A DNA stretch of 27,254 bases from a bacterium (GCA_043811375.1 JBDRNJ010000086.1:1-27254); one strand, 5' to 3'; numbered from the stretch's first letter, positions 3,001-17,613 are shown. Numbers and translations: made by a program. Notes: a model not told the origin generated them from the letters alone.

Positions 3001-4980
3001 TCCATTATCGTACTGGGAGAAAATCACAATATTGCTGGGATCAAATGTAGTGGTGTCAATCAGAATGTACTGCGTTTTCGATTGGTCAGGTGTCAGCGTG
3101 AACCAAGCTGAGGCAATCAGCCCGCTGTCGGGAGTAGTCACCGCCGAGGTGAAACGACCTATCCCCACCACAGCCTTGTTTGAATCGACAGCCGAAAACT
3201 TCCAGTCGGCTGTCGCGTATAGGGAGTTGACGAAACTGATTGAGTCACATATCAGAGCCGATGTAGAGCAGGAAAAAGAAAAGGGGAGCGATAATCCCGG
3301 GATCGTGTCAGCAGCATTGATGAATATGTCGACTCTGGCAGTAGAACTCCCAGGTAACACTGCAGTATTTCTAAATGACACCGTATCAGCGCTGGAAATG
3401 GGCAGCACCGAGTCCGGGTGTGGCGGGCAGTACGGCGCTGACGCAATCCGAAAGATATATTCGCTAAGATACTGCGCATCATGGTTGTTGACACCGAAGA
3501 TGCTGTCGACATCACCAGCCTCTATGAATGGCATGGGTGCTGATCCGCCCTGGTACAGGTAGTTAATAATGTAGATTATATCTATTATTTCAACCATTCC
3601 GGAGTAGTCCGCATCCCCGCAAATGATCTCTCCGTACTTGATAGTGACATAATCTGCCCCCGAGCCTGTATTGCGTGCCAGGCCGGTCACGACCACCGAG
3701 CCGTTCTTGGCCCGGGCGATATCGTTGCCGACATCGTCACCACTGACAGAGCCGTCATAGAGCTCAACCCACAATGAATCACCATTTGAGGCATCATACT
3801 GAATCGTAGTAATATCCAGGTCTCCCATAGCGCTACCGCTGTAGCCGGTTACCCAGACAACAAAGCCATCGGTGCACAAGGCAGTGCCCTGATCATGGGC
3901 GTCACCACTGCCGGCATACGTCCTTTCCCAAATGGGTGCGGCGCCAGAAGAGTCCATCTTGGTAACAAAGATGTCCTGGCCGGTAACAGCGCCCGTAGCA
4001 TAACCGGTTACGTAGATATACCCGAAACCATCTACAACCACATCCAGACCCATGTCTTCACCATTGGCCGCACCATCCTGTTGCTGCGCCCAGGCAAATG
4101 TTCCACCCGGATAGTACTTAACTGTGTAGACTTCGTAGTCATAGGTAGCTGACCAGTATCCTCCGGTCACAAACACATAGCCGCTGTCATCAACCGCTAT
4201 AGCCTTGGCGTAATCATTGCCGGAACTCCCCTCGCGTCTGACCCAGGCTGTGTCACCATTGGGCTTATATTTGATGGTAACGTAGTCCAGGAGTGAACCA
4301 CTTCCAAAACTCTCGCCGGTGACATATACGTTACCGCTGTCATCCACGGTCAGGTCGTTTACTCGATCCACCCCGCCACCGGGACCGGCGTAAGTCTTGG
4401 CCCACAGCTCATTGCCGGCAGTGTCGTATTTGATTGTCAGGAAATCATCATTAGTGAGGGTAGCCTCGGTGTAACCGGCGACATAGACGTTTCCGGAAGT
4501 ATCAATTGCTATCCTACGGGTAACGTCGGCTCCTCCCGCGACGGGCGACTCATTGTAAGATGCCGTCCAGACCACTGACCCATCGTGATCGTACTTGACC
4601 GTATATGACCCCAGACCGGGCGTTACGCCGAAAAGGACACCTGTCACGTAGACGTTGCCCGAATCATCAACCACCAGGTCATAGGCGTAATCACCCAGTG
4701 TGAAGCCTATTCTGCTTGACCACAGTGGTTCTCCGGTAACGGAAAGCGATCTGGTCAGCCAGTCGTCTAACCTGGCTCCACTCCAGTATACTGATCCAGT
4801 GATGTAAACACCACCGGCAGTGTCTACTGCGACAGCCATGGCGGAATCATCGCTGTTTCCCGGACCATTGAAGGTCCTTATCCACAGCGGATGGACACTC
4901 TGACCGAACGCCGAAACGGCGCCAAACAGGACCAGTGTTGAAAGACATAAAATCAGTGATTTCGTTAGCTGTCGACTCAT
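1..4980 (-). CDS. Giant secreted multidomain surface protein (3'-truncated by window edge, >=1660 aa): signal peptide, 8 SBBP repeats, dockerin-like, cohesin-like, Ig-like (Big_5), 7 FG-GAP, Big_5, 7 FG-GAP, TSP3 repeat, further FG-GAP
   Basis: Hand-translated: ATG at 4980 behind GAAGGAAGGA, no in-frame stop down to base 1. N-terminus MSRQLTKSLILCLSTLVLFGAVSAFGQ. Repeats such as LVVDDSGNVYVTG. Dockerin CGDADYSGMVEIIDIIYIINYLYQGGSAP (~3427-3621). Ig modules ending GYVWSFTT and GYTWTFTV. DFNGDGxxDL repeats. TSP3 DGDGVNDTLDNCPYVYNPGQEDTDIDGIGDACD near 85-190. Confidence 0.93.
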   Translation of the reverse strand, partial: MSRQLTKSLILCLSTLVLFGAVSAFGQSVHPLWIRTFNGPGNSDDSAMAVAVDTAGGVYITGSVYWSGARLDDWLTRSLSVTGEPLWSSRIGFTLGDYAYDLVVDDSGNVYVTGVLFGVTPGLGSYTVKYDHDGSVVWTASYNESPVAGGADVTRRIAIDTSGNVYVAGYTEATLTNDDFLTIKYDTAGNELWAKTYAGPGGGVDRVNDLTVDDSGNVYVTGESFGSGSLLDYVTIKYKPNGDTAWVRREGSSGNDYAKAIAVDDSGYVFVTGGYWSATYDYEVYTVKYYPGGTFAWAQQQDGAANGEDMGLDVVVDGFGYIYVTGYATGAVTGQDIFVTKMDSSGAAPIWERTYAGSGDAHDQGTALCTDGFVVWVTGYSGSAMGDLDITTIQYDASNGDSLWVELYDGSVSGDDVGNDIARAKNGSVVVTGLARNTGSGADYVTIKYGEIICGDADYSGMVEIIDIIYIINYLYQGGSAPMPFIEAGDVDSIFGVNNHDAQYLSEYIFRIASAPYCPPHPDSVLPISSADTVSFRNTAVLPGSSTARVDIFINAADTIPGLSLPFSFSCSTSALICDSISFVNSLYATADWKFSAVDSNKAVVGIGRFTSAVTTPDSGLIASAWFTLTPDQSKTQYILIDTTTFDPSNIVIFSQYDNGLKTIIPTFVGLNTIPPAVVATAPNANAVAVPVSTSISAEFNVDMDSGSFSFGGFVVWGSQSGPHPGAITYDTASRGVTLTPDTEFRPGEKVTAVISKTCQSLEGLPMSQGYVWSFTTEVPAFGGGYFQLDSVYSHPTWNQVSDILALDIKDTFSIDLVAAGMSEDSLFVLENDGLGELSLLGAWPAGGATPVCIATADFDGDLMVDIASGNTGPEEVAILLGDGAGNFSVDSMYPVGGEPQDILVCDFDGDAVADIAVSDQNSKVIIMLNDGTGQFTTDSIYNLWPYQSNKLAVADFNNDGAMDLITGIINGHNIIYLLAGNGDGTFVADVDTFSTGTTPYTIAASDFNGDGNADVAVFCGGDSVSVLLGDGTGQLGSRTDFWRGGWGGFWPVLVDDVDGDGDIDISTVVESGGNLNVSVMKNNGFGSFVTTAISSDIVSGGYPNAVMADLDGDDDLDMAICDISKIIVMRNIAVPEVIAVTPDANEVAAPVNTIVSAAFNTDMNPGHFDDSTFVVYGSQSGRHAGTVSYSPGARSVSLVPDDPFAPGEVVTAVVMRGVQSSEGIALSAGYTWTFTVEVNGGSGNFTLDTVMEAGTSASEILSADFDGDQDIDLATIDYVMDSITLIENVGGGNFAIANQVYVGSESPTTLAMGDFNNDAIPDLAIGTQSHEVSILLGTGSFNFSLDTVMMLGAPVASLVACDFNGDAFIDLAVGLNVTSSPMDSIRLLLNTTLGGFTESSYYLFIDGPYDLEGADFNNDGLMDLAAISFGDSIIGLFLGRDSMIDPLADMDTLYGVGSHPMELVSGDFDRDGNVDVATVSFTDFMGGSSSISVLFGNGDGLLGDRTDYPLSADSGQSLAATDLNGDGALDLAALTDQADGLEVFFNYGNGTFYDTISMTVGVYPNHITAADLDGNGNLDLAISDGNGNVMILLNLSGDYDGDGVNDTLDNCPYVYNPGQEDTDIDGIGDACDVEYVVTETDSADMYDIVTIDVDRDNYT

Positions 4981-5153: not shown

Positions 5154-7538
5154 CTACAGATTGGATAACAGAGGATCCAGACCGACTTCTTGTTCCGTCG
5201 GTCCATCGTGGTGCTCATAAGACTCCTGCAAACAGACTCGTGCTCTCTCGTTGTCACCGAGGATGGCATATGCCCGGGCCATGCAATAATGGACTTCGCC
5301 ACTGTGAATCTCACCGGCTGCTACTTGCTGTAAGTTGCTAATAGCTTCATCCTTGTCTCCGAGGCCTGCGAGTGCCATAGCCCGGTGCACCAGCAAATTG
5401 GTATTCGTTTCCCCGTTGACACTTTGCAGGTCAATGGACTCCAGACACTGATCGAAAAACACCCTGGCTTGTTGCTCGTTCCCTTCATGTTTCTCCAGGA
5501 ACCCCAGATAAAACATGGCGATGAACGGGAAATGCCCGGCCTCAATAGCATCCCTGAAACTGGATCGAGCCGAATCATAATCCTTCAGTATCATGTGCAC
5601 ATAACCGGCATAATGTCTGGCATTGGGGTCACCGTCGTATTTAACCGCCTGCTGGAAGTTCTCCAGAGCCTGCTCTACCACACCCAGTTTGAGATAGACT
5701 GCTCCCAGGTTGTAGTAGGCCCGTCCGTAGTCCGGCCCCAACTCGATAGCTCTATGCAAGGTCGCTATGGCTACCGTGAGCTTGCGTGAATCCATATGAA
5801 TCAGGCTGATCAGTAATAGCGTCTCCAGGTCGGTGGGAGCCAGTTGTAGCGCTTTTTTAGCCCATGTCAATCCTTCACTGAGATTTCCCTCGGTTGCTTT
5901 CAGCCAGGCGATCGTTCGATAGCCCACGGCATACTTGGGATTATACTCGACCGCCTTAAGGAAAGCCGCCTCGGCCCGCTCACTGTCACCGGTAAACATG
6001 TAGAAACGTCCCAGCGAACGATGTGCCTCCGGCATTTGCGGTTCCATCTCCAGAGCCTTCTCGGCCTCCTCCCGAGCAGCGGCAATGCAATTGGAACTGC
6101 GATCATAGTAGGCCATGTACCGGAAAGCATAGACGTCCGATAACCCAGTGTGAGCCAGAGCGAATGATGGATCAATGTCCAATGCCTTGCCATACATTTC
6201 TTCAGCGAACTTAAGATCATCAGGACGATTGAACTGATAATAGTCGCGTCCCCGCAGGTAGAAGTCGTACGCTGAGACATCCGGAGCTACCATTTCTTCA
6301 GCTTCGATAGCGGCCGTGCCGGTTGCTTCAGCCAGAGCACCGGCAGCATCCTCGGCAGCCTTTGACAGCAGGGCAAACAAATCATCGGCTGATCCCTCAT
6401 ACTTGCGACTGGATACTACCTCCTCGCCACCGCCACCATATATGCCCAGTTGCAGGCGCATCCGCTCCTGCCACTTCATGAGCGACCCCGTCATGACGAA
6501 ATCAGAATGGCAGCGCTTGAATATCTCGTTGATATTGCGCGGTAGCGACGTCGACGGTTCCGCCGACACTACCAGGTCGGTACGGCGGTTCAACTCTCCA
6601 ATGACATCGTCAGTGAATCCCAGGCAGAAGTAATCCCATGATTTGTCACCGGAGAGGTTCTTCAGGTCAACCACCGTAACCGTTCGGCTCCTTCGGGATA
6701 TTCCCACCGCCATCAGTCCCGGCTGATCCGAAACCAGGTTGCGATCGATTGCTTCAATCACTTCGGTCATTGATGGCGGACGATCTTCGGCCTGCTTCTG
6801 CAACAGGTGGACAATCAGATCACACAACCACTCCGGCAGATCGGGATCAATCTCCTGAGGACCTACCGGGTCTTCATACAACAGAGCGTACATAACACTT
6901 GCCGTCTGATCCCCCTCGAACGGACGCCGGCCGGTGAACAACTCATACAGAACAATACCAAAGCTGAACAGGTCCGAGGAGTAACTGATCGGCTCAGCCG
7001 AGAGTTGTTCCGGTGACGCATAGGCGATAGTACCCTCGATCTCGCCGTAACTGTCGACAGAGTGACCGTGCTGAGTCGAGGCCAGACCAAAATCAAGAAT
7101 CTTGGGGTCGCCGTCAGTCGTAATACGGATGTTCTCGGGCTTCAGATCGCGGTGGATGACATCGCGAGCATGAGCGGCCTGAAGACCGGTACCGACCTTG
7201 CGGGCCAGACTCAATTTCTGCTCAACAGTCAGGTTATTACTCGCCTGCCTGAACTCTTCGCCCGTCACGAATTCATACGATATGAACGGACTATCGTCTA
7301 TCTCGGCATACTCCCAGACCTTGACGACGTATGGTGAGTCTATCTGAGCAGCTTTCTTGGCCTCATTGGCCAGTGAGCTACGGAAGTCGGCCGAGTCGGC
7401 CAGTTCTTCATTTATGACCTTAAGAGCTACCTGACGATCAAGCCGGGTGTCTATCGCCTTGTAGACCGTCCCCTGCGTACCCTGTCCCACGCATGAGAGC
7501 ACGTGGTATTGCCCGAAATGTGATCCGGGTGTCAACAC
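5154..7538 (-). CDS. Hanks-type Ser/Thr protein kinase with TolB-N-like middle domain and C-terminal TPR repeats
   Basis: Kinase motifs GQGTQGTVY, VALK, HRDLKPEN, DFG, GTIAYASPE, SDLFSFG. Middle segment VVDLKNLSGDKSWDYFCLGFTDD. TPRs such as ALDIDPSFALAHTGL and AYYNLGAVYLKLG. GTG start. Confidence 0.93.
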   Translation of the reverse strand: MLTPGSHFGQYHVLSCVGQGTQGTVYKAIDTRLDRQVALKVINEELADSADFRSSLANEAKKAAQIDSPYVVKVWEYAEIDDSPFISYEFVTGEEFRQASNNLTVEQKLSLARKVGTGLQAAHARDVIHRDLKPENIRITTDGDPKILDFGLASTQHGHSVDSYGEIEGTIAYASPEQLSAEPISYSSDLFSFGIVLYELFTGRRPFEGDQTASVMYALLYEDPVGPQEIDPDLPEWLCDLIVHLLQKQAEDRPPSMTEVIEAIDRNLVSDQPGLMAVGISRRSRTVTVVDLKNLSGDKSWDYFCLGFTDDVIGELNRRTDLVVSAEPSTSLPRNINEIFKRCHSDFVMTGSLMKWQERMRLQLGIYGGGGEEVVSSRKYEGSADDLFALLSKAAEDAAGALAEATGTAAIEAEEMVAPDVSAYDFYLRGRDYYQFNRPDDLKFAEEMYGKALDIDPSFALAHTGLSDVYAFRYMAYYDRSSNCIAAAREEAEKALEMEPQMPEAHRSLGRFYMFTGDSERAEAAFLKAVEYNPKYAVGYRTIAWLKATEGNLSEGLTWAKKALQLAPTDLETLLLISLIHMDSRKLTVAIATLHRAIELGPDYGRAYYNLGAVYLKLGVVEQALENFQQAVKYDGDPNARHYAGYVHMILKDYDSARSSFRDAIEAGHFPFIAMFYLGFLEKHEGNEQQARVFFDQCLESIDLQSVNGETNTNLLVHRAMALAGLGDKDEAISNLQQVAAGEIHSGEVHYCMARAYAILGDNERARVCLQESYEHHDGPTEQEVGLDPLLSNL

Positions 7539-7659: not shown

Positions 7660-8955
7660 GTGACCGAAGAACAGCTTTCTGAACTTGAACGATTGCGCTC
7701 CGCTGTTGCTGAACTTACCAGCCTGAACGAAATCGCAGGCAACATCAGCGCTTCCATGTCGGTGGAAAACATAACTGAAACCATAATCGACAGAAGTCTC
7801 AAACATATCGGTGCCAGTCAGGGAGCCGTCTTTCTCCTCAGCCGAGAACGAAGCAGTTCGGACCAGTTAAAGACATTTATCCGCAGGACCACCGGAACCC
7901 AGCGAGAAATGCCCATTCACCTCAACATGAATCTAACCGGGTGGATGATAAAACACAAGGAACTTCTCGTAATCAACTCACCCGCAACCGAAAATCCCTT
8001 CACGCGACTTGATCTGGAATCGCTGGGCATTAACTCCCTCCTGGCCGCGCCGCTGTTGACTCGCAACGGACTGATAGGTGTCTTGGCCATCTTCAACAAA
8101 GAGGGAGATCAGGGCTTTACCAGCCAGGATTGCCGGTTCCTTCAAATACTTGGCTCGCAGTGTTCACAGGTAATCGAAGCGGCTCGCCTGTATGACGAAG
8201 AAAAGAGGCTCATGATCCTGCGCGAAGAGCTGGAGATTGCACGTTCCATTCAGCAAAGCCTGCTGCCGGTACCGACTGAGGTGGGTGACGAGACAATCAT
8301 ATTCGGCTTCAACAGCCCGGCCCGTGAGGTGGGCGGTGATTTTTATGACATGGTGCTTCTCGACGATGATACGTTTTTCCTGTCGGTTGGTGACGTGGTC
8401 GGCAAGGGTGTGCCGGCGGCTTTGCTTATGTCCAACGCCCTGGCGGTGGAACGGTCGCACTTGAGCAATCAACAGACCTTCTCGGTGGCTTCGATGGCGA
8501 CCAACTTAAACCAGCTCATATTCCAATTCACTAAACCGGGTCAGTTCATAACCGCTTACTTTGGTATCCTCGACCGTCGCCGCGGCCGCCTTGAATATGT
8601 TAATGCCGGACACCCACCACCGGTGATTGCCAACGATGGCCAACTGGTGCCGTGTGATCACCATGCTGACGTCGTGCTGGGTGTACTGGACGGTTTTCAA
8701 TATCAATCGGCCACACTCCAACTCCCGCCTGACTCGACAATCTGTATCTTCTCCGATGGTGTTACCGAGGCGTTTAATGAAGCCGGCGAGGAGTTTGGCG
8801 AGCGGCGACTGATAAGTTATATAAGAAAGGCCGGTTCTGAGTCGGCCCGGACGATTTGTGACGGGCTCCTGGATGATCTGAAGCAGTTTCGTGGTGACGC
8901 CGAACAGTCCGACGACATCACTGCCGTCGTCATCAGGACGAACCCGGAATCTTAG
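7660..8955 (+). CDS. GAF domain + SpoIIE/PP2C (RsbU-like) protein phosphatase
   Basis: GAF segment SLLAAPLLTRNGLIGVLAIFNK. Linker ELEIARSIQQSLLP. PP2C motifs GGDFYD, VGDVVGKG, NAGH, FSDG, DDIT all intact. Confidence 0.93.
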   Translation: MTEEQLSELERLRSAVAELTSLNEIAGNISASMSVENITETIIDRSLKHIGASQGAVFLLSRERSSSDQLKTFIRRTTGTQREMPIHLNMNLTGWMIKHKELLVINSPATENPFTRLDLESLGINSLLAAPLLTRNGLIGVLAIFNKEGDQGFTSQDCRFLQILGSQCSQVIEAARLYDEEKRLMILREELEIARSIQQSLLPVPTEVGDETIIFGFNSPAREVGGDFYDMVLLDDDTFFLSVGDVVGKGVPAALLMSNALAVERSHLSNQQTFSVASMATNLNQLIFQFTKPGQFITAYFGILDRRRGRLEYVNAGHPPPVIANDGQLVPCDHHADVVLGVLDGFQYQSATLQLPPDSTICIFSDGVTEAFNEAGEEFGERRLISYIRKAGSESARTICDGLLDDLKQFRGDAEQSDDITAVVIRTNPES

Positions 8956-9493: not shown

Positions 9494-12049
9494 CTACTCG
9501 TTGGGGATCAGCAGGAAGTTGAGATTGCTGATGGCGGTGCCTCCACGCTGGGGTTGTACCTCAAGCTTGATCTGGGTCGGGTCTGACCGGGAATCGAGGA
9601 ACTCAAGATGCTGCGGATCGACATAGATCCGGTATTGGCCCGGTACCAACCCCAGATAAAAATATTCTCCGGAACTGAAAGTGGATACCTCGGTGACGGC
9701 GTCGGTGGCGTCGTTGATGATCATGATCTTGACCATACCGACACCGGCCAGTCCCTGTTCGGTTTGTTTGCGCACCATGCCGCTGACTTCGGTTACCACC
9801 ACCACCGCTACATCGATAGCCGTCACCATGTTGGGATTGCAGAAGACTTCGTAATTGTCAAAGGCCGGTTTGAGGGTGGGGTCATCCAGACCAAACTCGT
9901 CAACCTCCACCAGGTAGCGGTCATAGGCCCGCAGGCCATCGTAGTAGAAGCGCTCACCACGGGTGGTGGGTCGGGCACGACCGCCCTTGATGGTAGCCCT
10001 GATACCGGTCAGGTAAATCTCTCCCTCATCGACCAGGCCGTTGTAATTGTCGTCCGCGTACGGTCGCACAATCGCCGACCCGTAGCCGATGCCGTTGCGG
10101 CGGTCAAACCAGATTCGGTGTGCCTGTTGATCGTAGCGCACCGAGCCGCGCTGGGTTTGGGCCATGGAGGTATGTTCGCCAACGGAGACAACCCGGGTAG
10201 AAAAATCAGCAAAACCGGTCAGCAGGCGGAAAGATGCCGTAATCTGGTAGTTCCCGGCTATTTCATTGCGGTCGACACCGACACTAAGCTGGCCGACGCG
10301 AAAGAGTCGTCGGTTCCATTGGATGCCGTACCGGGAAAATTGATTGAGCGTGTGGTCATAAGTAGCGCGAAGCTGCGGTCGGAGGAACCTCAGAATATTC
10401 GGCATCACGAAAATTTCGCTGGTGATTTTGCTGTGGCTTCCGGCTGTGCTTTTTTTGATTACCGTTCTGCCCAGGTAAGTAATATGCAGCAACGGCAGCG
10501 ACGAGCTGGTGCCGTAGTTGAAGTTGATGGAACTAAAATCCCGGAACTTGTTAACCGAGGAACTGAAGCGTAAGCTATAGTAACGTCCACCGATAGGCAA
10601 CGGTGAGGATACTGCCAGGCGAGCCGAGTAAACCTGATGGGCTCGGTTACGGAATTCGTTTTCAAAGTAGCGCGTGAAGGAACCGTTGATACTTATCAAC
10701 GAGGGGCGATTAAAGGAGAAGGCTCCGGCGGCAGCGTAGCGAGGTGACAGAGAGGCGTTGGCCGTCAGATCGCCGGTCGCCTGCCAGGTGGCTTCGGCGG
10801 CAACGGTGGGCGGTTCCTTGTCCTGGGAGCCGAAAGGAAAATCGGTGCCGGCACCGAGAGTCAGTCGATTGCTGACACCGTAAAAACCATTGGCCTGACC
10901 GTAGACACGGTTTTCCTCGAAACCATTGTCGGCCACCCCGGCCGATACTGTGTACTCAAAAGTCTTCTCGGGAATCTGATTATAGGAGACACCGGCATAA
11001 CGGCGCTCGGTCCTTATTTCACCGTTGGGACCGTACAACTTGAGAATGATCTCGGTCGTGCCGTAATAGATGTCGACCTCGAAATGGTAATTTCCACTGA
11101 CGTCGGTTAACTGATAATCAACCAGGCGACTGCCGATCCACAGCTCAACCTCCCACCCATCGCCGACGTAGCCGTTGACATCGATTGTCTGGAAAATCCG
11201 GCGCGGTACCTGGGGCTGGTTGGTAACCGAGGCGCCTTTTAGACGCCGGGAGAGAAAACCGCCGGTAGTTACCTGGCCCAGGTTGATCTGGGTCAGATGG
11301 CGACTGTTGTCAAAGTAGTAGTGCCAACGGTAGGTCATGGCCCCCGGATCAAAGCCGGTTACGGAATTGCCGCCGCCGGAAACGCTCAGGTCGCCGGCCA
11401 GCACCATGGCGCCGAGGCCGAGGCCAAAGTGGTGGCCGCCGTCACCAAAAGGACTGCTGGACACCGCCCAGTCAACCACGCCAACGCCGAAATACGGTTC
11501 CTGACGCGGCAGGCTGCGAACGTTTCTGAGTGCCGTCTCCCGGGTCCGGAGTTTCTTTTGTGCCTGCTGACGTTTGAGCTTTTGATACGACGGCAGGCTT
11601 TCGTCAAGCTTTAGCCGAACTGTCAGTGATGAGAAATGGAATTTCGCCTGCAGGCCGAACAGTTCCTCAAAAAGGTCGACCTTGAGATACAACTCACCGG
11701 CAGAGACTGTGAAATTGGAGTCGGCCAGAGGGTGCCGGTCACCATCGATAGTAACCGTTCTGTCCATCAGGTTGATTTCGTAAGGACGGTCATTACTAAT
11801 GAAGAACCCGTAGAAGCGTCCGGCGGATGCGTCGGATGCGATGTTTATGTCCAGCAGGCGGAATATCTCGGTAACGGGAAGGAATACGTTCTGGTTGTCG
11901 TAAAGAACGTACAGGTCCTTCTGCAGCAGCCGGGGAATGTCAAAGCCAATGACGATCTCCTCAAAACCGGACTCCTCTGCGGCAACCGGTGCGATCACAC
12001 CGATAGCCAGAGTAGCGGATACGATCAGGATTGTGGTCAGTCGGACCAT
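9494..12049 (-). CDS. Fimbrial usher-like outer-membrane protein with C-terminal SdrD-B-like/prealbumin-fold domains
   Basis: Signal peptide, 851 aa, amphipathic beta-strands. Usher-like LGQVTTGGFLSRRLKGASVTN. Plug-like segment GWEVELWIGSRLVDYQ...GNYHFEVDIYYGTTEIILKLYGPNGE. C-terminal DDNYNGLVDEGE and GEYFYLGLVPGQYRI. Lies next to a chaperone and five pilins. Confidence 0.82.
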   Translation of the reverse strand: MVRLTTILIVSATLAIGVIAPVAAEESGFEEIVIGFDIPRLLQKDLYVLYDNQNVFLPVTEIFRLLDINIASDASAGRFYGFFISNDRPYEINLMDRTVTIDGDRHPLADSNFTVSAGELYLKVDLFEELFGLQAKFHFSSLTVRLKLDESLPSYQKLKRQQAQKKLRTRETALRNVRSLPRQEPYFGVGVVDWAVSSSPFGDGGHHFGLGLGAMVLAGDLSVSGGGNSVTGFDPGAMTYRWHYYFDNSRHLTQINLGQVTTGGFLSRRLKGASVTNQPQVPRRIFQTIDVNGYVGDGWEVELWIGSRLVDYQLTDVSGNYHFEVDIYYGTTEIILKLYGPNGEIRTERRYAGVSYNQIPEKTFEYTVSAGVADNGFEENRVYGQANGFYGVSNRLTLGAGTDFPFGSQDKEPPTVAAEATWQATGDLTANASLSPRYAAAGAFSFNRPSLISINGSFTRYFENEFRNRAHQVYSARLAVSSPLPIGGRYYSLRFSSSVNKFRDFSSINFNYGTSSSLPLLHITYLGRTVIKKSTAGSHSKITSEIFVMPNILRFLRPQLRATYDHTLNQFSRYGIQWNRRLFRVGQLSVGVDRNEIAGNYQITASFRLLTGFADFSTRVVSVGEHTSMAQTQRGSVRYDQQAHRIWFDRRNGIGYGSAIVRPYADDNYNGLVDEGEIYLTGIRATIKGGRARPTTRGERFYYDGLRAYDRYLVEVDEFGLDDPTLKPAFDNYEVFCNPNMVTAIDVAVVVVTEVSGMVRKQTEQGLAGVGMVKIMIINDATDAVTEVSTFSSGEYFYLGLVPGQYRIYVDPQHLEFLDSRSDPTQIKLEVQPQRGGTAISNLNFLLIPNE

Positions 12050-12098
12050 GAAAAAAGCTCCGTAATTTATTACCGGACAGATCGAATCCGGCAGCGGT

Positions 12099-12974
12099 CT
12101 ATTCTACTGCCGCGACCAGTTCGATGGTATTACCGGGAATCATATCCTGCGGTTGAACATCGTTGCGCCCCTCGTTGGATATTCGTATCTGGACCTTGAA
12201 CGGCGGATGATATTTAGATTCACGGATGGGCAGATCAATACGCCTCAGCAGGTCGCGGTAAACTGCCATTTTAAGCAGATTACGAGAAACCTGACGATGA
12301 TCCCGGTCGAGAAGAGTGCATTCCAGCATACCCATATATGAGACGTTACCCAGGTTGGTCATATCGATCATCACTTCGACCAGGGAGTCGTGCAGTCTGG
12401 CCGTGGCGCTGTTGAGCTCCAGATTGCAGACCAGGTCACCCTGACGGTGCTTGAACATGATTGCCTGGCGTGAGACCATGTGCAACTGGGTGCCGATAGT
12501 GCCTTCCTCATCCAGCATTTTCACCGGTGGTGGGGCGGCCTTCTTGGAACTGATCATTACCCGGGCCCAGTATTCACCGTCCGGCAGTCCCTGAGGCGGG
12601 TGGGCCATTATCCTGATTGTCTGGCTTTCGTCCGGTTGGACAATGACGGCCCGTGGAAAAGCCTTGACCCAGCCCAGCGCCGAACGCGGATCGGTTACGG
12701 CGGAGTCTTGAAACCTGACGAACACATTGCCCAGGCTGTCGGAAGCCGGCAGGCCGAAGCTGAAATCGATAGTGACTTCCTGATCCTCGTTACCCTGGTT
12801 GACTACGGTTAAGCGGCCGGTTGGCTTCTTGTCGGATGTAAACACGATGGTTGGTGATACCAGTACACCGGCGATCGAATTGACTGCCAGCAGAAGCACC
12901 AAAACGACCGGCCACAGCAGTCTTGGTAAAACCTGGTGAGCCGGGGGTGTAATATGCCTGTCGGGTCCGTTCAT
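12099..12974 (-). CDS. Periplasmic pilus assembly chaperone (PapD-like/archaic type)
   Basis: Signal peptide then GVLVSPTIVF...LTVVNQG; WVKAFPRAVIVQPDESQTIRI; LPDGEYWARV; second Ig-like domain with MTNLGN. Confidence 0.82.
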   Translation of the reverse strand: MNGPDRHITPPAHQVLPRLLWPVVLVLLLAVNSIAGVLVSPTIVFTSDKKPTGRLTVVNQGNEDQEVTIDFSFGLPASDSLGNVFVRFQDSAVTDPRSALGWVKAFPRAVIVQPDESQTIRIMAHPPQGLPDGEYWARVMISSKKAAPPPVKMLDEEGTIGTQLHMVSRQAIMFKHRQGDLVCNLELNSATARLHDSLVEVMIDMTNLGNVSYMGMLECTLLDRDHRQVSRNLLKMAVYRDLLRRIDLPIRESKYHPPFKVQIRISNEGRNDVQPQDMIPGNTIELVAAVE

Positions 12975-13063
12975 GTCGTTATTCCTATCTCAAATCAACT
13001 TATGTTTCATCTTTTAGACCGAAGTGGCAGTCGCAGCCTTCAGCCGATCCGCCTATATTCCTG

Positions 13064-13687
13064 TCAGGTACCGTTGTAAGATACGCTGAGCACTATGTCG
13101 GCATTGTAAGTGCCCGATTTCTGACTCACCGATGGTGTCACTTTGCCACCCAGATAAATCCTGGTGGTGCCGCTGCTGCCAATCACCGCAGCCGATGGAA
13201 GGTTGTATGGGTTCTGGTCGATCCAGCCGTTGGATGCGGCTACGGTCGATGGTGTCACCGTGGTGGTATCAACTGCCGCATCGCCGGCGCCGAAAATGAT
13301 CGGTATCCGATCGGAACCGTCACTCAAGGCCAGATAGGACGGCAGCGACAACTGTAAGGTAATCCCCGAACCGGATTGACCGGTGATACTGAATATGGCG
13401 GAGGAATCATCATCATTGTACCCGATTTCTCTGGGCACCCCCGCAAAGACGTTGCCGAAACTCAGGTCCTGGGTGGCGTTAACTGCCAGCGCGGTCAGGA
13501 CCGTGGCGGTAGCCGACCGGTCATCATAGTCCGATGATTGCACCAGCGACCGGTTGACCGGCAAGTTCAACAGCAGAACCACCAACGCTGTCGTCGGCAG
13601 CACTCTGCGGCCAGCCGTCCGAGCTGCCGTTTGTCGGCGGATGTCAGACTGTGGTTTCATCTGTTGGTAATTGTTCGTAAGAATCAT
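13064..13687 (-). CDS. Pilin subunit P5 (DUF4402/Csu-like); start may instead be ATG at 13660
   Basis: ATATVLTALAVNATQDLSFGNV; LPSYL; YLGGKVTP; C-terminal GTYNADIVLSVSYNGT. Paralog of the four neighbouring genes. Confidence 0.8.
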   Translation of the reverse strand: MILTNNYQQMKPQSDIRRQTAARTAGRRVLPTTALVVLLLNLPVNRSLVQSSDYDDRSATATVLTALAVNATQDLSFGNVFAGVPREIGYNDDDSSAIFSITGQSGSGITLQLSLPSYLALSDGSDRIPIIFGAGDAAVDTTTVTPSTVAASNGWIDQNPYNLPSAAVIGSSGTTRIYLGGKVTPSVSQKSGTYNADIVLSVSYNGT

Positions 13688-13707
13688 CTTTACGCAACAA
13701 GTTTTTT

Positions 13708-14271
13708 CTATATGCCGTTGTAGGCAACTGTCAGCACAATGTCGGCGCTGTAGTTACCCGCCTTCTGGTTTGCCGACGGCACCACTTTGCCGCCGAGGTA
13801 AACATCGGTTCCACTGCTGCCGATTATGGCCGCCGCCGGCAGGTTGCGGGGATCAACTCCCAGCCAGCCGCTGATCCCGGCATCGGTGGGATCATGAGCC
13901 GCGGTAGTATCGACCGAGGCTAACGTGCTGCCGAAAATTACCGGCATACGATCACTGTTGTCGCTGAGAGACATATACTCTGGCAAAAACAGCACCAGTT
14001 CAATACCAGCCTGGCTCTGACCGGTTATCTGAAAGACCGCCGCGTCGCTGCCGATAACCACCACGGTGGTCGGCACTCCCTGAAGGACATCGCCAAAATT
14101 CAGATCAGCCGACGATGTGACTGAAAGAGCGGTTTGTACTATGGCCTCAGCACCGCCCACCGCTACGTCCTGGGCGGTCGGTCCCGCGGGCAGGAGCATA
14201 GCACTTATGGCGGCGAGGCCGGCCACCCGTCTCACCAGGCGACACACTTCCAATGTAAGGCACCAGTTCAT
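13708..14271 (-). CDS. Pilin subunit P4 (DUF4402/Csu-like); start uncertain
   Basis: AEAIVQTALSVTSSADLNFGDV; LPEYM; YLGGKVVP; C-terminal GNYSADIVLTVAYNGI. Confidence 0.8.
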   Translation of the reverse strand: MNWCLTLEVCRLVRRVAGLAAISAMLLPAGPTAQDVAVGGAEAIVQTALSVTSSADLNFGDVLQGVPTTVVVIGSDAAVFQITGQSQAGIELVLFLPEYMSLSDNSDRMPVIFGSTLASVDTTAAHDPTDAGISGWLGVDPRNLPAAAIIGSSGTDVYLGGKVVPSANQKAGNYSADIVLTVAYNGI

Positions 14272-14281
14272 TTCGAAACAC

Positions 14282-14343
14282 TGCTCAATAATCGCACACA
14301 GTTCGTCAGTTTATTTATCGGCAATCTGTTCAATTTTATTACA
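14282..14343. promoter_or_regulatory. Two 17-bp TG[TC]-N11-ACA operator-like sites upstream of P4
   Basis: TGCTCAATAATCGCACA (14282-14298) matches the reverse complement of the 15410-15426 site at 15/17. TGTTCAATTTTATTACA at 14327-14343. Confidence 0.5.
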
Positions 14344-14614
14344 TCTCAAATTAAAGCCGGAAACAGACAAAGCGAAAGTTTTACAGTTATCAACGGGAGA
14401 GATCTCCAGGTTATAGCATTGATTCCGTCGGTAGGGGTTTTTGAAAAAGTCAAATTATCGTCATTGCCGGCGACAGCGCGGCAATCTCGTTGTGTGCGCG
14501 CGTATGTCCACATGCGCCGCTATCTACCGGCAGATGTGGATATCTGCCGGTCACAGGGAATTCATCAAACTTTGAGTCGGCGTAACCTGGTCGTGACGTC
14601 CAGCGACGATGGTG

Positions 14615-14651
14615 AAAAAAAACAGGGGAGCCGCCGGTGCGGTTCCCCTGT
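14615..14651 (-). terminator. Rho-independent terminator after pilin P3
   Basis: Minus strand ACAGGGGAACCGC-ACCG-GCGGCTCCCCTGT followed by a T run, 35 bp after the P3 stop codon. Confidence 0.8.
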
Positions 14652-14685
14652 AAATTCAATCGGGTGCTATCAATCGAAATGTCTC

Positions 14686-15264
14686 TTAGGCACCCTCGAA
14701 CCAGACAGTCAAAATGATTGTTGCGGTGTAGTCGGCGGCCGAAAGCTGGGTTGAGCTGGGAATGACAGTGCCGCCCAGGCCGATGTTACCGGTGGCCTCA
14801 GTCAGGGTCAGTGAACCGATTGCGTACGGATTCTTGGCCGTATAGGTGCCTAAGGAGAAGTCAGTATTAGTGACACCGGTGGGACAGTATGACGCGTCCG
14901 TATCTTGGAAGAAGACATCAATACGCTGTTTGACCGTGGTTGACCAGAGGTATTCCGGAAGTAGTAAGGCCACCTGGATGTTGTCGCCGGCGGAGCCAGC
15001 TACCGCCCACAGGCCCGATCCCCCGGCGCCGGCGCCGAGATCATCGGTAGCACTATCAATGGCCTTGGCGACGCCCATGTAGACGTTACCCCAGTCGAGG
15101 TCCTGTGTCTCAGTAATTGCCAGAGCCGTCAACACGGTTGCCGTGCAGGTGCTTTGAAAGGTGTCGTTGGCATCCAGGGAACTGCCAAACATTAGAATCA
15201 GGCCCACCGCGAACACCGCAAGCAACGAAGCCCAATGACTGCCCTTTTTGCTGATGATCTGCAT
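14686..15264 (-). CDS. Pilin subunit P3, candidate major shaft pilin (192 aa)
   Basis: ATG at 15264 with GAGGA RBS (track start 15327 is longer). Signal peptide; STCTATVLTALAITETQDLDWGNV; LPEYL; GLGGTVIP; DYTATIILTVWFEGA. Confidence 0.82.
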   Translation of the reverse strand: MQIISKKGSHWASLLAVFAVGLILMFGSSLDANDTFQSTCTATVLTALAITETQDLDWGNVYMGVAKAIDSATDDLGAGAGGSGLWAVAGSAGDNIQVALLLPEYLWSTTVKQRIDVFFQDTDASYCPTGVTNTDFSLGTYTAKNPYAIGSLTLTEATGNIGLGGTVIPSSTQLSAADYTATIILTVWFEGA

Positions 15265-15409
15265 ATTATCCTCTGTGACGTACGAAAGGTTGTTCAATAA
15301 TTTCAGTTCTGCTTTCAAAACAGACACTCGTGGTCTTTAGAACATAATCGCCATTTTAGCCCAAAAACTCACACCTGCTGGTTAAGAAAGTGGCAGGCGT
15401 TTTTGGAGA

Positions 15410-15426
15410 TGTTCGATTATTGAACA
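15410..15426. promoter_or_regulatory. Near-perfect 17-bp palindromic operator-like site upstream of P3
   Basis: TGTTCGATTATTGAACA, plus a matching half-site TGTTCAATAAT at 15291-15301. Confidence 0.55.
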
Positions 15427-15445
15427 ACGGCCGAAGGGACCGCTA

Positions 15446-15919
15446 TCAGTTGCCGGTGTAGGTTACTGTCAGGCGAATTGTGGCTGAGTAGCTGCCGGCT
15501 TTCTGTACCAGGCCGGGTACAATAGTCCCGCCCAGCCAGACTGTCAGGAGGCTGTCGGAACCGATCCGGTAAGTTATGGGACCATTTGGATTTAATCCAC
15601 TGGTGCTGGGGCTGCCCTGATCGGGAGGATCAGTAGAATCAACAGCACAACTGGTGCTGGAGAAAAAAAGTGGCATATTGGCGCCTGTCATGTAAAGATA
15701 TCCGGGGAGCATAAAATCAAGAGTTACCTCGGCTTCACCATCGCCGGAAATCGACCATTCGGCGGCATCAGTTGAACTGCTGGCAATCTCGCCGGGAACA
15801 CCGGGATAGATATTGCCAAAGACCAGATCCTGAGTTCCGCTAACAGTCTGACCGTACAGCCAATTGCCCGACCACAAGCAGGCCGGACCGAGCCACATGA
15901 GTATTGCCAGTCGTCTCAT
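15446..15919 (-). CDS. Pilin subunit P2 lacking the N-terminal extension (157 aa)
   Basis: ATG at 15919 behind AGGAGG. MRRLAILMWLG...LYG then QTVSGTQDLVFGNI; LPGYL; WLGGTIVP; GSYSATIRLTVTYTGN. Confidence 0.8.
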   Translation of the reverse strand: MRRLAILMWLGPACLWSGNWLYGQTVSGTQDLVFGNIYPGVPGEIASSSTDAAEWSISGDGEAEVTLDFMLPGYLYMTGANMPLFFSSTSCAVDSTDPPDQGSPSTSGLNPNGPITYRIGSDSLLTVWLGGTIVPGLVQKAGSYSATIRLTVTYTGN

Positions 15920-16017
15920 TATTGACCATGCCTCCTGTGCCGCCATGACTAAACAAAGTGGCCGGGCAGGTCAACAAATATCTGCGGTGAAGCCCCTGAG
16001 GCCGTCGTGTCACCAGA

Positions 16018-16545
16018 TCAACCTCCGGTGAGCGTCACGGTCAATTGTATACTGGCGGTGTATTCCCCGGCACCTTGGCTCATGATGGGACTGACCGAGC
16101 CTCCCAGCCAAACCGTCATAGAACCGGTACTGTTCAGGTTAACGGTAGAAACCGAATAAGGGTTCATAGAGACCGACGGGTTTGTCTGCGTGGCCAGGGC
16201 GCTGTTGGCATATGAGGCATCAGAACTGGAGAAGGTGATCGGCAGACTACTGGTGCCTGAACTGAGTGAGTCGGGCAAAGTAAAGTCCAACGTGACCTCC
16301 GCCCCGAAGCCGCCTGCGACTACAGTCCACTCACCGGCGGATCCGACCGCAATTTTCTCAACTGATTTATCAACGCCTGGAGTGACTATCCCAAAGTCCA
16401 GATCATTACTGCCTATCACCGTCATGGAAGCTACCACAGTGGCGCGAGCCTGAATTGTGCTGCTGACCTGGGCATCCATCTTCCGGGCAGGCAGCAAAAT
16501 CAACAGGGCGACAATCGACCACCGCAGCAGTAAAATTCTGTCCAC
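16018..16545 (-). CDS. Pilin subunit P1 (DUF4402/Csu-like)
   Basis: GTG start behind AAGGAGG. Signal peptide; QVSSTIQARATVVASMTVIGSNDLDFG; WLGGSVSP; GEYTASIQLTVTLTGG. Confidence 0.83.
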   Translation of the reverse strand: MDRILLLRWSIVALLILLPARKMDAQVSSTIQARATVVASMTVIGSNDLDFGIVTPGVDKSVEKIAVGSAGEWTVVAGGFGAEVTLDFTLPDSLSSGTSSLPITFSSSDASYANSALATQTNPSVSMNPYSVSTVNLNSTGSMTVWLGGSVSPIMSQGAGEYTASIQLTVTLTGG

Positions 16546-16593
16546 GGTTTCCTCCTTGGTTAAACCCTGAGGTTTTGTTCCGTCTGCAGTAAG

Positions 16594-16609
16594 TGCAAGG
16601 GGGGTGCCC
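16594..16609 (-). promoter_or_regulatory. Putative sigma54 (-24/-12) promoter of the pilus cluster
   Basis: Minus strand GGGCACCCCCCTTGCA: GG-N10-GC with GGCAC and TTGCA, one mismatch to TGGCAC-N5-TTGCW, about 50 bp upstream of the P1 start. Confidence 0.62.
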
Positions 16610-17104: not shown

Positions 17105-17260
17105 TCAGTGTTGTTTCCTCCGACGCCCGAACACGAAATCAACACCCAGAGCTATCAGGGCTACCGGTAACAGATAATCCCAGAACGAGCCGTGAATGAT
17201 GCCGGTCTTGTCCAAAATCATCAGCACGCCGATAGCCATTAGCACTATTCCAATGAACAT
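17105..17260 (-). CDS. Small two-TM membrane protein (LiaI/LiaF-TM, DUF5668-like), 51 aa
   Basis: Hand-translated, not in the ORF track. AGGAG RBS; MFIGIVLMAIGVLMILDKTGIIHGSFWDYLLPVALIALGVDFVFGRRRKQH. Confidence 0.8.
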   Translation of the reverse strand: MFIGIVLMAIGVLMILDKTGIIHGSFWDYLLPVALIALGVDFVFGRRRKQH

Positions 17261-17525: not shown

Positions 17526-17613
17526 TGGCGGAGGAGGTAGGATTCGAACCCACGGTACCTTGCGGTACAACGGTTTTCAAGACCGCCGCTTTCGACCACT
17601 CAGCCACTCCTCC
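17526..17613 (-). tRNA. tRNA-Ser (anticodon UGA)
   Basis: Acceptor stem GGAGGAG/CTCCTCC with GCCA end; anticodon arm GCGGT-CTTGAAA-ACCGT; long variable arm GTACCGCAAGGTAC; GTTCGAATC T-loop. Confidence 0.97.

Follow-up and report, generated by a model that had tools for sequence, protein, structure and literature searches.

Chaperone–usher pili are sorted into six usher clades, a scheme built mostly on Proteobacteria, and the question raised by the locus studied here is whether its genes encode such a pilus and to which of these clades, if any, it belongs. In the window (the whole stretch of bacterial DNA analyzed, 27,254 nucleotides), seven ORFs, all on the minus strand, spanned positions 9494..16545 and encoded five pilins, a chaperone and an usher homologue (Table 1), as claimed in an earlier note on this DNA; the end coordinate given there, 16609, falls some 64 bases upstream of where pil1 starts. 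We consider it probable that the five DUF4402 subunits, the PapD-fold chaperone and the full-length usher homologue together build a fibre on the cell surface through donor-strand exchange and represent a branch distinct from the classical, alpha and sigma systems. The association of these genes is not due to chance, since 73 of 80 related loci had the chaperone linked directly to the usher (the remaining 7 start within the usher or at it). NCBIfam gave zero matches for all seven proteins.

Table 1. Features of the locus, with positions counted from the first letter of the window.
Feature	Position	Strand	Size	Description
pil1	16018..16545	(-)	175 aa	exported DUF4402-family pilin, N-terminal donor strand; first gene
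pil2	15446..15919	(-)	157 aa	exported DUF4402 pilin without donor strand
pil3	14686..15264	(-)	192 aa	divergent donor-bearing pilin; terminator-like hairpin after it
hairpin	14613..14652	(-)		GC-rich, then T run; terminator-like; -22.4 kcal/mol
pil4	13708..14271	(-)	187 aa	donor-bearing DUF4402 pilin; putative minor subunit
pil5	13064..13687	(-)	207 aa	donor-bearing DUF4402 pilin; putative minor subunit
chaperone	12099..12974	(-)	291 aa	periplasmic; predicted PapD fold; non-classical Arg R138; putatively remodelled second-domain anchor
usher homologue	9494..12049	(-)	851 aa	outer-membrane; N-terminal domain non-classical; no Pfam usher family

The ribosome-binding site of pil1 was strong. The pil2 ORF was 15446-15946 (166 aa), the start at 15919 being preferred from its ribosome-binding site, and the pil3 ORF was 14686-15327, the start at 15264 being favoured and backed by protein P0086 (192 aa); pil5 may start at 13660. 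A plus-strand ORF (14134-14754), which shares bases with pil3 and pil4 and matched no family, was treated as a shadow frame. A mobile island was rejected for lack of evidence, the GC content being flat and no integrase being present within the window. A tRNA-Ser lies upstream of the locus and was absent from the neighbours examined in relatives, a comparison made without a tRNA scan; the only Rfam match found was the tRNA.

The five small proteins were paralogous, as previously proposed, with 30-56% identity across the aligned core. The motifs described as shared were present in all five, with small departures in pil3 (DLxWG, and A replacing G before Tyr), pil1 (LPxSL) and pil4 (LPxYM). All five had been named DUF4402 pilins; in the HMM search, this held for pil4 (E = 7e-7) and pil2 (E = 1.6e-6), both above the curated cut-off, and more weakly for pil1 and pil5 (both E = 0.002), whereas pil3 had no DUF4402 match. 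The SCPU family (PF05229) matched none of the five at E<=1 and in the wider family weakly matched 6 of 129 pilins (E<=0.05, best 7e-4), DUF4402 being found in 124 of the 129. In the mature chains, with signal-peptide cleavage sites placed by eye and hydrophobicity, pil1, pil4 and pil5 had no Cys, pil2 had one and pil3 two; among 71 donor-bearing mature chains, 51 were without Cys and 5 had two. These counts confirm the absence of a Csu-type Cys pair from the locus, such an invariant pair in the pilin domain being given as a sigma hallmark in the portions of PMC4654587 and PMC10104325 drawn on here. The statement that a two-domain adhesin is missing was likewise correct for the locus, and in genome G000 (95% complete) the pilin profiles yielded only these five single-domain paralogues.

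The structure model of pil1 (pLDDT 93.6) is predicted to have a pilin-type Ig fold, as expected, similar to CfaB and CsuA/B, with the N-terminal 15 residues free (mature residues 1-15 in no strand). The best Foldseek matches were CfaB (E = 8.5e-5) and CsuA/B (E = 2.9e-4; Z = 8.0-8.1, rmsd 2.8 over 111), pilin Z-scores of 8 to 8.5 being near the level that common Ig folds give and an archaeal cannula protein tying for first place. The earlier description of the pilins as Csu-like stands at the level of the fold, where it is tied with CFA/I pilins, but not beyond it. The fold matches listed included neither TLP-1 environmental fibrils (CryoSeek) nor CPR Pam pili nor WxL pilins, all considered as relatives, which excludes none of them, and a sequence search of solved structures with the pilin profiles gave nothing meaningful.

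The pilins had also been regarded as five uniform donor-bearing subunits, and this had to be abandoned, as pil2 has no donor strand and belongs to a conserved donor-less class. The donor motif was found in 0 of 48 pil2-class rows versus 168 of 184 other pilin rows; the class rows were shorter than the other pilins by 14 residues (median), 47 of the 48 fell on one branch, and 48 loci had exactly one such subunit each, none having two. Since pil2 has no donor strand and there is one such subunit per locus, its sequence suggests that it is likely the tip cap or initiator of the fibre, as SafD is. Alternatively, pil2 might be secreted as a stand-alone or a regulatory subunit, or a misplaced cleavage site might conceal its donor strand, the sites having been judged without a dedicated predictor; moreover, the class varies no more than pil1 does (mean pairwise identity 57% vs 55%), and a receptor-binding tip might be expected to be more so. 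We regard this as improbable: the N-terminus after the hydrophobic segment was short in 47 of 48 assigned rows, the class retains the C-terminal chaperone-binding strand, and the natural fusions P0279 and P0386 place a donor-less domain before a donor-bearing one, giving it a donor strand in cis. There is also a precedent in the Saf/Afa-Dr (gamma3) fibres, whose cap (SafD, AfaD) is described in the section of PMC5700814 used here as a subunit of one domain that accepts the donor strand of the next subunit.

The chaperone-like gene was verified by a model (pLDDT 88.2) with two Ig domains, predicted to be a PapD-type two-domain fold, and by the invariant Pro (P107, equivalent to EcpB P60), present in 120 of 120 family chaperones; PapD_N gave a weak match in 62 of the 120. 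The model matched known chaperones of all clades (Foldseek E from 2e-9 to 1e-6; Z = 11.8-13.9), with sigma, classical and WxL chaperones tying for the closest fold (Z about 13-14, <=16% identity), CsuC heading the list by a tied margin (Z = 13.9). R138 aligned with EcpB R89 and was conserved in 115 of 120 family chaperones, its position being occupied by His in four more distant members, the Polaromonas, Sphingopyxis and two Saprospirales-labelled chaperones; the residues defining non-classical chaperones (Arg89 of CsuC/EcpB; Pro) were taken from the relevant part of PMC4654587. Unlike in the classical pili (beta, gamma, kappa, pi), the position of the strand A1 Arg (FimC) was occupied by I43, in a column with Val in 98 and Ile in 13 of 120 sequences. 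The positions of EcpB Arg148 and Tyr169 corresponded to M214 (variable) and A237 (120 of 120) in an alignment that is itself weak (E = 0.012), while K175, R177 and Y213 were invariant in the family, and the subunit C-termini extended three residues past the last aromatic residue (Tyr-x-Gly-x). Because the Arg/Tyr anchor of CsuC/EcpB appears to be replaced (Met214, Ala237) and the subunit C-terminus is longer, the anchor is probably a different one, made up of K175, R177 and Y213, which would suggest a third way of holding the subunit C-terminus. The F1-G1 loop of the model was long and poorly ordered (residues 146-166), and the model ended in a strand, with no C-terminal helix.

Against the sequences of solved structures, the best match of the broad chaperone profile was Enterococcus faecium WxLIP1 (E = 0.004), followed by CfaA (E = 0.16), and the narrow profile gave nothing meaningful. 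The resemblance to the WxL/Elr pilus of Enterococcus (WxLIP/ElrE) further includes the longest chaperone alignment (224 residues; Z = 13.2, rmsd 7.2) and a small-x-small-x-Val donor pattern. In contrast to that system, the locus has an usher, the chaperone is without a C-terminal membrane helix, there is no sortase anchor, donor position 14 is not Phe, and no WxL chain appeared among the pilin fold matches listed. The family chaperone offers a sequence bridge to the WxL chaperones, which have been reported as disjoint from PF00345 chaperones.

The usher-like gene was substantiated by profile homology: in hhalign, the family profile aligned with that of 11 classical ushers (probability 98.7, E = 1.5e-16, 611 columns; reversed-profile control, E = 0.0027), collinearly from residue 125 to 803, whereas no match to the classical profile was obtained for residues 25-130 (E = 0.2). 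Significance was reached only profile against profile, comparisons with single FimD, EcpC, FimC or EcpB sequences not being significant (E = 0.011-0.22). An Atlas model also resembled PF00577 usher clusters over residues 171-845 (TM 0.54-0.55; 0.60-0.61 by target), and a crude sequence count gave 5 + 20 alternating windows flanking a plug-sized segment (288-359). The locus usher had no match to a Pfam usher family in the HMM search, and PF00577, PapC_N, PapC_C, CooC_C and TcfC were absent from the matches listed for 35 family ushers, although the controls FimD (1e-228) and EcpC (CooC_C and TcfC) did match. Against solved-structure sequences, the narrow usher profile found nothing meaningful and the broad one matched only SdrD-type C-terminal domains. 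In a quick tree, a branch with SH-aLRT 97 set the 21 family rows apart, the 11 ushers of E. coli K-12 and Acinetobacter lying across it and EcpC also falling outside the family, which upholds the proposed separation from classical and alpha ushers within a tree built without sigma, kappa, gamma2 and gamma3 ushers, with a single alpha usher on a long branch and with family rows picked by similarity to the query.

The gene order, several small pilin genes followed by a chaperone and an usher, is that of the archaic systems (sigma; Acinetobacter Csu, Pseudomonas CupE), with which the locus shares the pilin fold near CsuA/B, the chaperone fold, the invariant Pro and the domain-1 Arg. It differs from them in the pilins without SCPU or a Cys pair, the longer subunit C-terminus, the absence of a two-domain tip adhesin (CsuE, CupE6) after the usher, the apparently replaced second-domain anchor residues and the position of the family usher outside PF00577, a search whose control was FimD and included no sigma usher. 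The alpha systems (CFA/I, CS1, E. coli common pilus) are approached through CfaB, the top pilin match, the equivalent of EcpB R89, ushers (EcpC) that likewise escape PF00577, and a weak lean of the broad profiles toward Ecp proteins in per-sequence E-values (usher profile: EcpC 1.4e-5 vs FimD 0.011; chaperone profile: EcpE 3e-7 vs FimC 3.6e-5). There is, however, no large tip adhesin (CfaE, EcpD), the EcpB R148 and Y169 positions do not seem to be kept, and CooC_C and TcfC are missing from the family usher matches listed. The locus could be a fast-evolving branch inside the sigma or alpha clade, with the Cys pair and the two-domain adhesin lost along it, as the shared Arg, the CsuA/B, CfaB and CsuC matches, the Ecp lean and the six weak SCPU matches would allow; this seems unlikely to us in view of the usher family searches, the apparently altered anchor, EcpC outside the family, and fold scores that are flat across all clades in both pilin and chaperone comparisons (identity <=19%). 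From the classical pili, the locus is set apart by the Val/Ile of the chaperone, the tree and an usher N-terminal region without a PapC_N-type match. Saf/Afa-Dr systems use classical chaperones and PF00577 ushers, whereas the family chaperone has Ile/Val at the classical Arg position; the single-domain cap proposed here for pil2 and the long, poorly ordered F1-G1 loop of the chaperone model are an analogy of architecture, not membership. The system is an uncharacterized variant of chaperone–usher pili, probably with a clade of its own.

In the proposed mechanism, all seven proteins would cross the inner membrane by Sec, judging from their N-terminal hydrophobic segments. The chaperone G1 strand would complete each incomplete Ig subunit and R138 would hold the subunit C-terminus. 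Having no donor strand, pil2 can only accept, and it would enter the usher first and cap the tip; pil1, pil3, pil4 and pil5 would join below it, the A8-x-A10-x-V12 strand of each occupying the previous subunit's groove. A candidate adaptor adjoining the tip is pil1. Set off by the terminator, pil3 would probably be the major subunit, a candidate assignment that is weak because four-pilin loci are often without the hairpin (in 26 of 49 loci it occupied the corresponding position, and in this locus it was not picked up by a simple terminator scan). The fibre may serve adhesion or biofilm formation, binding via its shaft and single-domain tip, and the locus points to a tip that has no two-domain adhesin. 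Capsules of the Caf1 type are themselves donor-strand polymers, and the chemistry of a capsule, sheath or coat would be the same as that of a pilus. Export of the subunits into such a non-fimbrial layer, as for Caf1 or Myxococcus Mcu, would accord with the lack of an adhesin gene, with a system known here from genes and not from a fibre shape, and with the non-pilus products of gamma and sigma systems noted in the part of PMC13734109 cited; we give it little credence, as one donor-less class and several donor classes in a fixed gene order fit a tip-and-shaft polymer.

The closest relatives of the locus were labelled mostly Zixibacteria, in line with the suggested FCB/Zixibacteria genome; the bacterium is uncultured and probably a member of the Zixibacteria. 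A strong match to the family chaperone was present in 82 of 201 genomes sampled from the same phylum, 27 of 81 genomes from another class had DUF4402, and 2,899 clusters at 50% identity were reached by the pilin profile. The branch is widespread and apparently unstudied, its fibre likely being capped by a small subunit in place of the usual two-domain adhesin; the family was missed by usher HMMs although common in sampled genomes, and DUF4402 gains a testable function from the locus. Literature searches, in which subscription journals were largely uncovered, returned no DUF4402 paper, no paper on chaperone–usher systems in Zixibacteria and no study of the family. Two statements of the earlier note proved too narrow: the system is not outside the Proteobacteria, as homologous DUF4402–chaperone–usher loci occur on Polaromonas, Sphingopyxis and Pseudoalteromonas records, and reports of archaic pili are not confined to that phylum, such pili having been described from cyanobacteria and Deinococcota in the sections of PMC10104325 and PMC4390875 consulted. 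In these proteobacterial DUF4402 (PF14352) loci, for which the literature searches found no experimental study, the family and the gene order are the same and the usher carries the RefSeq label carboxypeptidase-like regulatory domain protein, but the usher segments are only 24-32% identical. Such cultured carriers open the family to testing; the plasmid locus of Polaromonas JS666 has, ahead of chaperone and usher, a pilin with a donor strand, a degenerate gene that also bears one and a pilin lacking it. In keeping with a separate branch, a family chaperone matched only 8 of 72,556 plasmid records at E<=1, and a family usher found the same 8.

A chaperone–usher locus is present in the window, and we regard this assignment as well supported and hold it with high confidence. 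The locus works like a non-classical chaperone–usher system and fails defining features of sigma (archaic), alpha (alternate) and classical pili. All seven proteins had a hydrophobic segment at the N-terminus, and core identity among the five small proteins, pil1–pil5, was 30–56%; the motifs that the earlier note had read from the DNA were common to all five, with small departures only. Pfam placed DUF4402 on four of the five small proteins (two of these above the cut-off) and SCPU on none, gave no informative match for the 291-aa chaperone, and found no usher family on the 851-aa protein, which matched C-terminal SdrD_B/carboxypeptidase-regulatory and, weakly, N-terminal Cu_amine_oxidN1 domains and nothing else. 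No NCBIfam model matched any of the seven proteins, and no further pilin, chaperone or usher paralogues were found in the genome to which the window belongs (95% complete).

Genes of the chaperone–usher locus, in gene order
Feature	Position	Strand	Order
pil1	16018–16545	−	first of seven genes
pil2	15446–15919	−	second
pil3	14686–15264	−	third
pil4	13708–14271	−	fourth
pil5	13064–13687	−	fifth
chaperone gene (291 aa)	12099–12974	−	sixth
usher-homologue gene (851 aa)	9494–12049	−	seventh

Profile comparison and a predicted structure identify the protein of 851 aa as a homologue of ushers. Profile–profile comparison of 21 family ushers with 11 classical ones, taken from E. coli K-12 and Acinetobacter, gave a probability of 98.7 (E-value = 1.5 × 10−16, 611 columns), with a collinear match over residues 125 to 803, versus an E-value of 0.0027 for the reversed control profile; residues 25–130 gave no match to the classical profile (E-value = 0.2). 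The Atlas model (pTM 0.69) aligned with PF00577 clusters at a TM of 0.54–0.55 by query (residues 171–845). A crude alternation scan put 5 strand-like windows ahead of a plug-sized segment (288–359) and 20 behind it. Usher families were absent from the Pfam matches listed for 35 family ushers at E ≤ 0.1, and the controls FimD and EcpC matched such families. Several family ushers bore a C-terminal peptidoglycan-binding domain of the OmpA (L072, L074, L076 and P0073) or SPOR (L073, P0078 and P0082) type or had SPOR genes as neighbours, L090 being a further case; these architectures suggest a wall-tethered usher.

The product of the 291-aa gene is a pilus chaperone. Its model (pLDDT 88.2) consisted of two Ig domains with no C-terminal helix and a long low-confidence loop at 146–166, and it matched the chaperones of all clades about equally, with identity of at most 16% throughout: CsuC (Z 13.9, rmsd 3.9, 183 aligned), SafB (13.8), YadV (13.6), FimC (13.4), CfaA (12.4) and EcpB (11.9), as well as WxLIP (Z 13.2, rmsd 7.2, 224 aligned). 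PapD_N was found weakly on 62 of 120 chaperone homologues (best E-value = 4 × 10−5). According to the sections of PMC4654587 used here, a Pro is invariant in all chaperones and an Arg occurs only in archaic and alternate ones, with an Arg and a Tyr of domain 2 as a further marker. In a weak alignment with EcpB (E-value = 0.012), P107 corresponded to this Pro (kept in 120/120) and R138 to this Arg (115/120), and the domain-2 positions were occupied by variable M214 and invariant A237; among the members listed, four more distant ones had His in place of R138. The position of the classical strand-A1 Arg held Val or Ile; K175, R177 and Y213 were invariant. In a sequence search of solved structures, the broad chaperone profile ranked Enterococcus WxLIP1 first (E-value = 0.004) and CfaA next (0.16), with nothing else at E ≤ 10. 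The link to WxL chaperones is weak and is treated as a lead, since section 13 of a preprint (10.64898/2026.10.17.759780) reports these to be disjoint from PF00345 chaperones at E ≤ 1 × 10−20.

The small proteins belong to the pilin type. The mature pil1 model (pLDDT 93.6) had residues 1–15 in no strand, and its best Foldseek matches were CfaB (E-value = 8.5 × 10−5) and CsuA/B (E-value = 2.9 × 10−4, TM 0.54), followed by classical pilins. By Z, an archaeal cannula protein (8.5), the CfaE pilin domain (8.5) and CsuA/B (8.0–8.1; rmsd 2.7–2.8, 111–113 aligned) were tied, and such values lie close to the background that common folds give. The donor strand, which would fit into the preceding subunit's groove, read A8-x-A10-x-V12 (each position in 90% of 71 chains), and the chains ended in Tyr-x-Gly-x. 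Cys was lacking in 51 of the 71 donor-bearing chains, unlike the pattern described for archaic pilins in parts of PMC4654587 and PMC10104325. The pil3 protein had one Cys in the donor strand and one in the body.

The subunits probably serve different roles. Among 314 candidate stretches from species-representative genomes, a relative was encoded in 297, and the best 80 were used. Most close relatives carried a Zixibacteria label, and the chaperone and usher genes were linked in 73 of the 80 loci, the remaining seven contigs beginning at the usher. In the pil2 class (48 of 232 aligned pilins), the median spacing between the signal core and the LxFG motif was 22 residues versus 36 in the others, and the donor motif was found in 0/48 rows versus 168/184. 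After two misassigned L051 rows had been exchanged, 47 of the 48 donor-less rows grouped in a single branch (support 0.921), with exactly one such subunit per locus in the 48 loci; among wider relatives, 19 of 143 were donor-less, including proteins labelled Gemmatimonadota and Balneolales. By the established logic of chaperone–usher assembly, a subunit that lacks a donor strand can accept one but not supply one, and pil2 should therefore occupy the distal end of the fibre. SafD provides a precedent for a donor-less capping subunit (in the part of PMC5700814 consulted). Two natural fusions, P0279 and P0386, placed a donor-less DUF4402 domain ahead of a donor-bearing one, an arrangement through which two-domain tip proteins could have arisen. 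A single unpaired Cys was kept in 38 of 42 mature donor-less chains (pil2 in the window; alignment A4 of this class).

In 26 of 49 loci, a terminator-like hairpin lay after the third pilin gene from the end, versus 2/22, 4/39, 2/49 and 6/49 at other positions. In the window it lay after pil3, though a simple scan did not list it there, and pil3 is on this account tentatively proposed as a candidate major subunit. The strongest ribosome-binding site was that of pil1, which weakens this proposal.

Two genes absent from the window locus recurred in related loci. A gene for a short exported protein of 102–172 aa lay between pil1 and pil2 in 35 loci (for example, L012:5655–6038 and L066:5624–6046), with a counterpart at L088:4571–5191; its donor strand and last strand were kept, its fast-evolving middle was degenerate, and Pfam gave no match for the three proteins examined. 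It is a candidate terminator, by analogy with PapH or FimI (the latter described as a terminator in PMC12122975), or an adaptor. In 28 loci, a beta-propeller of about 500 aa with a type IX sorting tail was directly upstream of the pilin genes, on the opposite strand in 27, with a FlgD_ig/Por_Secre_tail C-terminus (L026:3580–5082, L064:3425–4921 and 26 further loci). Of the 37 loci with enough flank, which are kin and not independent, 24 had both genes, 4 the short gene only, 2 the propeller only and 7 neither (window included). SprA was present in the genome of the window; the short gene was absent from it, as was a clear propeller orthologue (best BLAST identity 25–35% over long alignments versus at least 42% within the family). 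In rearranged loci (L002:12694–13218, L061:2046–2573, L008:4358–4846 and L047), pil1 or the donor-less gene was inverted or moved behind the usher.

Of 201 genomes from the phylum, 88 had a chaperone match (82 at E < 1 × 10−80), and DUF4402 occurred in 27 of 81 from a further class, the one to which the L073 genome belongs; the pilin profile reached 2,899 representatives. Homologous loci also occurred in Polaromonas, Sphingopyxis, Novosphingobium and Pseudoalteromonas, so the family is not limited to genomes outside Proteobacteria, where the earlier note had placed this locus; in the records of these four, RefSeq calls the ushers carboxypeptidase-like regulatory domain or SdrD-B proteins. The Polaromonas gene order was donor-bearing pilin, degenerate gene, donor-less pilin. 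Two IS6 transposase genes flanked the plasmid locus of Polaromonas JS666 (L088), which suggests mobility of the homologous locus in Proteobacteria. In 72,556 plasmid records, a family chaperone matched 8 at E ≤ 1 and FimD matched 2,349; two records entered as plasmids, NZ_CP077849.1 (3.7 Mb) and NZ_CP141089.1 (4.9 Mb), resemble chromosomes.

In a quick usher tree, with rows picked by similarity to the query and with sigma, kappa, gamma2 and gamma3 missing, a branch with SH-aLRT 97 set the 21 family ushers apart from the 11 classical ushers and EcpC; family profiles leaned slightly to Ecp proteins. On this sampling the locus would best be filed as a separate branch, and we consider it likely both that the branch is separate and that it has a single-domain tip cap; the form and function of the fibre are inferred. 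The literature search found no study of DUF4402, of this pilus family or of chaperone–usher systems with Zixibacteria; background cited comprises parts of PMC11494351, PMC13278184, 10.1101/130278, PMC4390875, PMC13734109 and 10.64898/2026.10.17.759780.

Downstream of the locus, the window encoded a protein of >1,660 aa with propeller, Ig, dockerin and FG-GAP repeats (1–4980), a Ser/Thr kinase with TPR repeats (5154–7538) and a GAF-SpoIIE phosphatase (7660–8955), none of the three being seen as a conserved neighbour of related loci. Upstream were a tRNA-Ser(TGA) (17526–17613) and a LiaF-like membrane protein of 51 aa (17105–17260).
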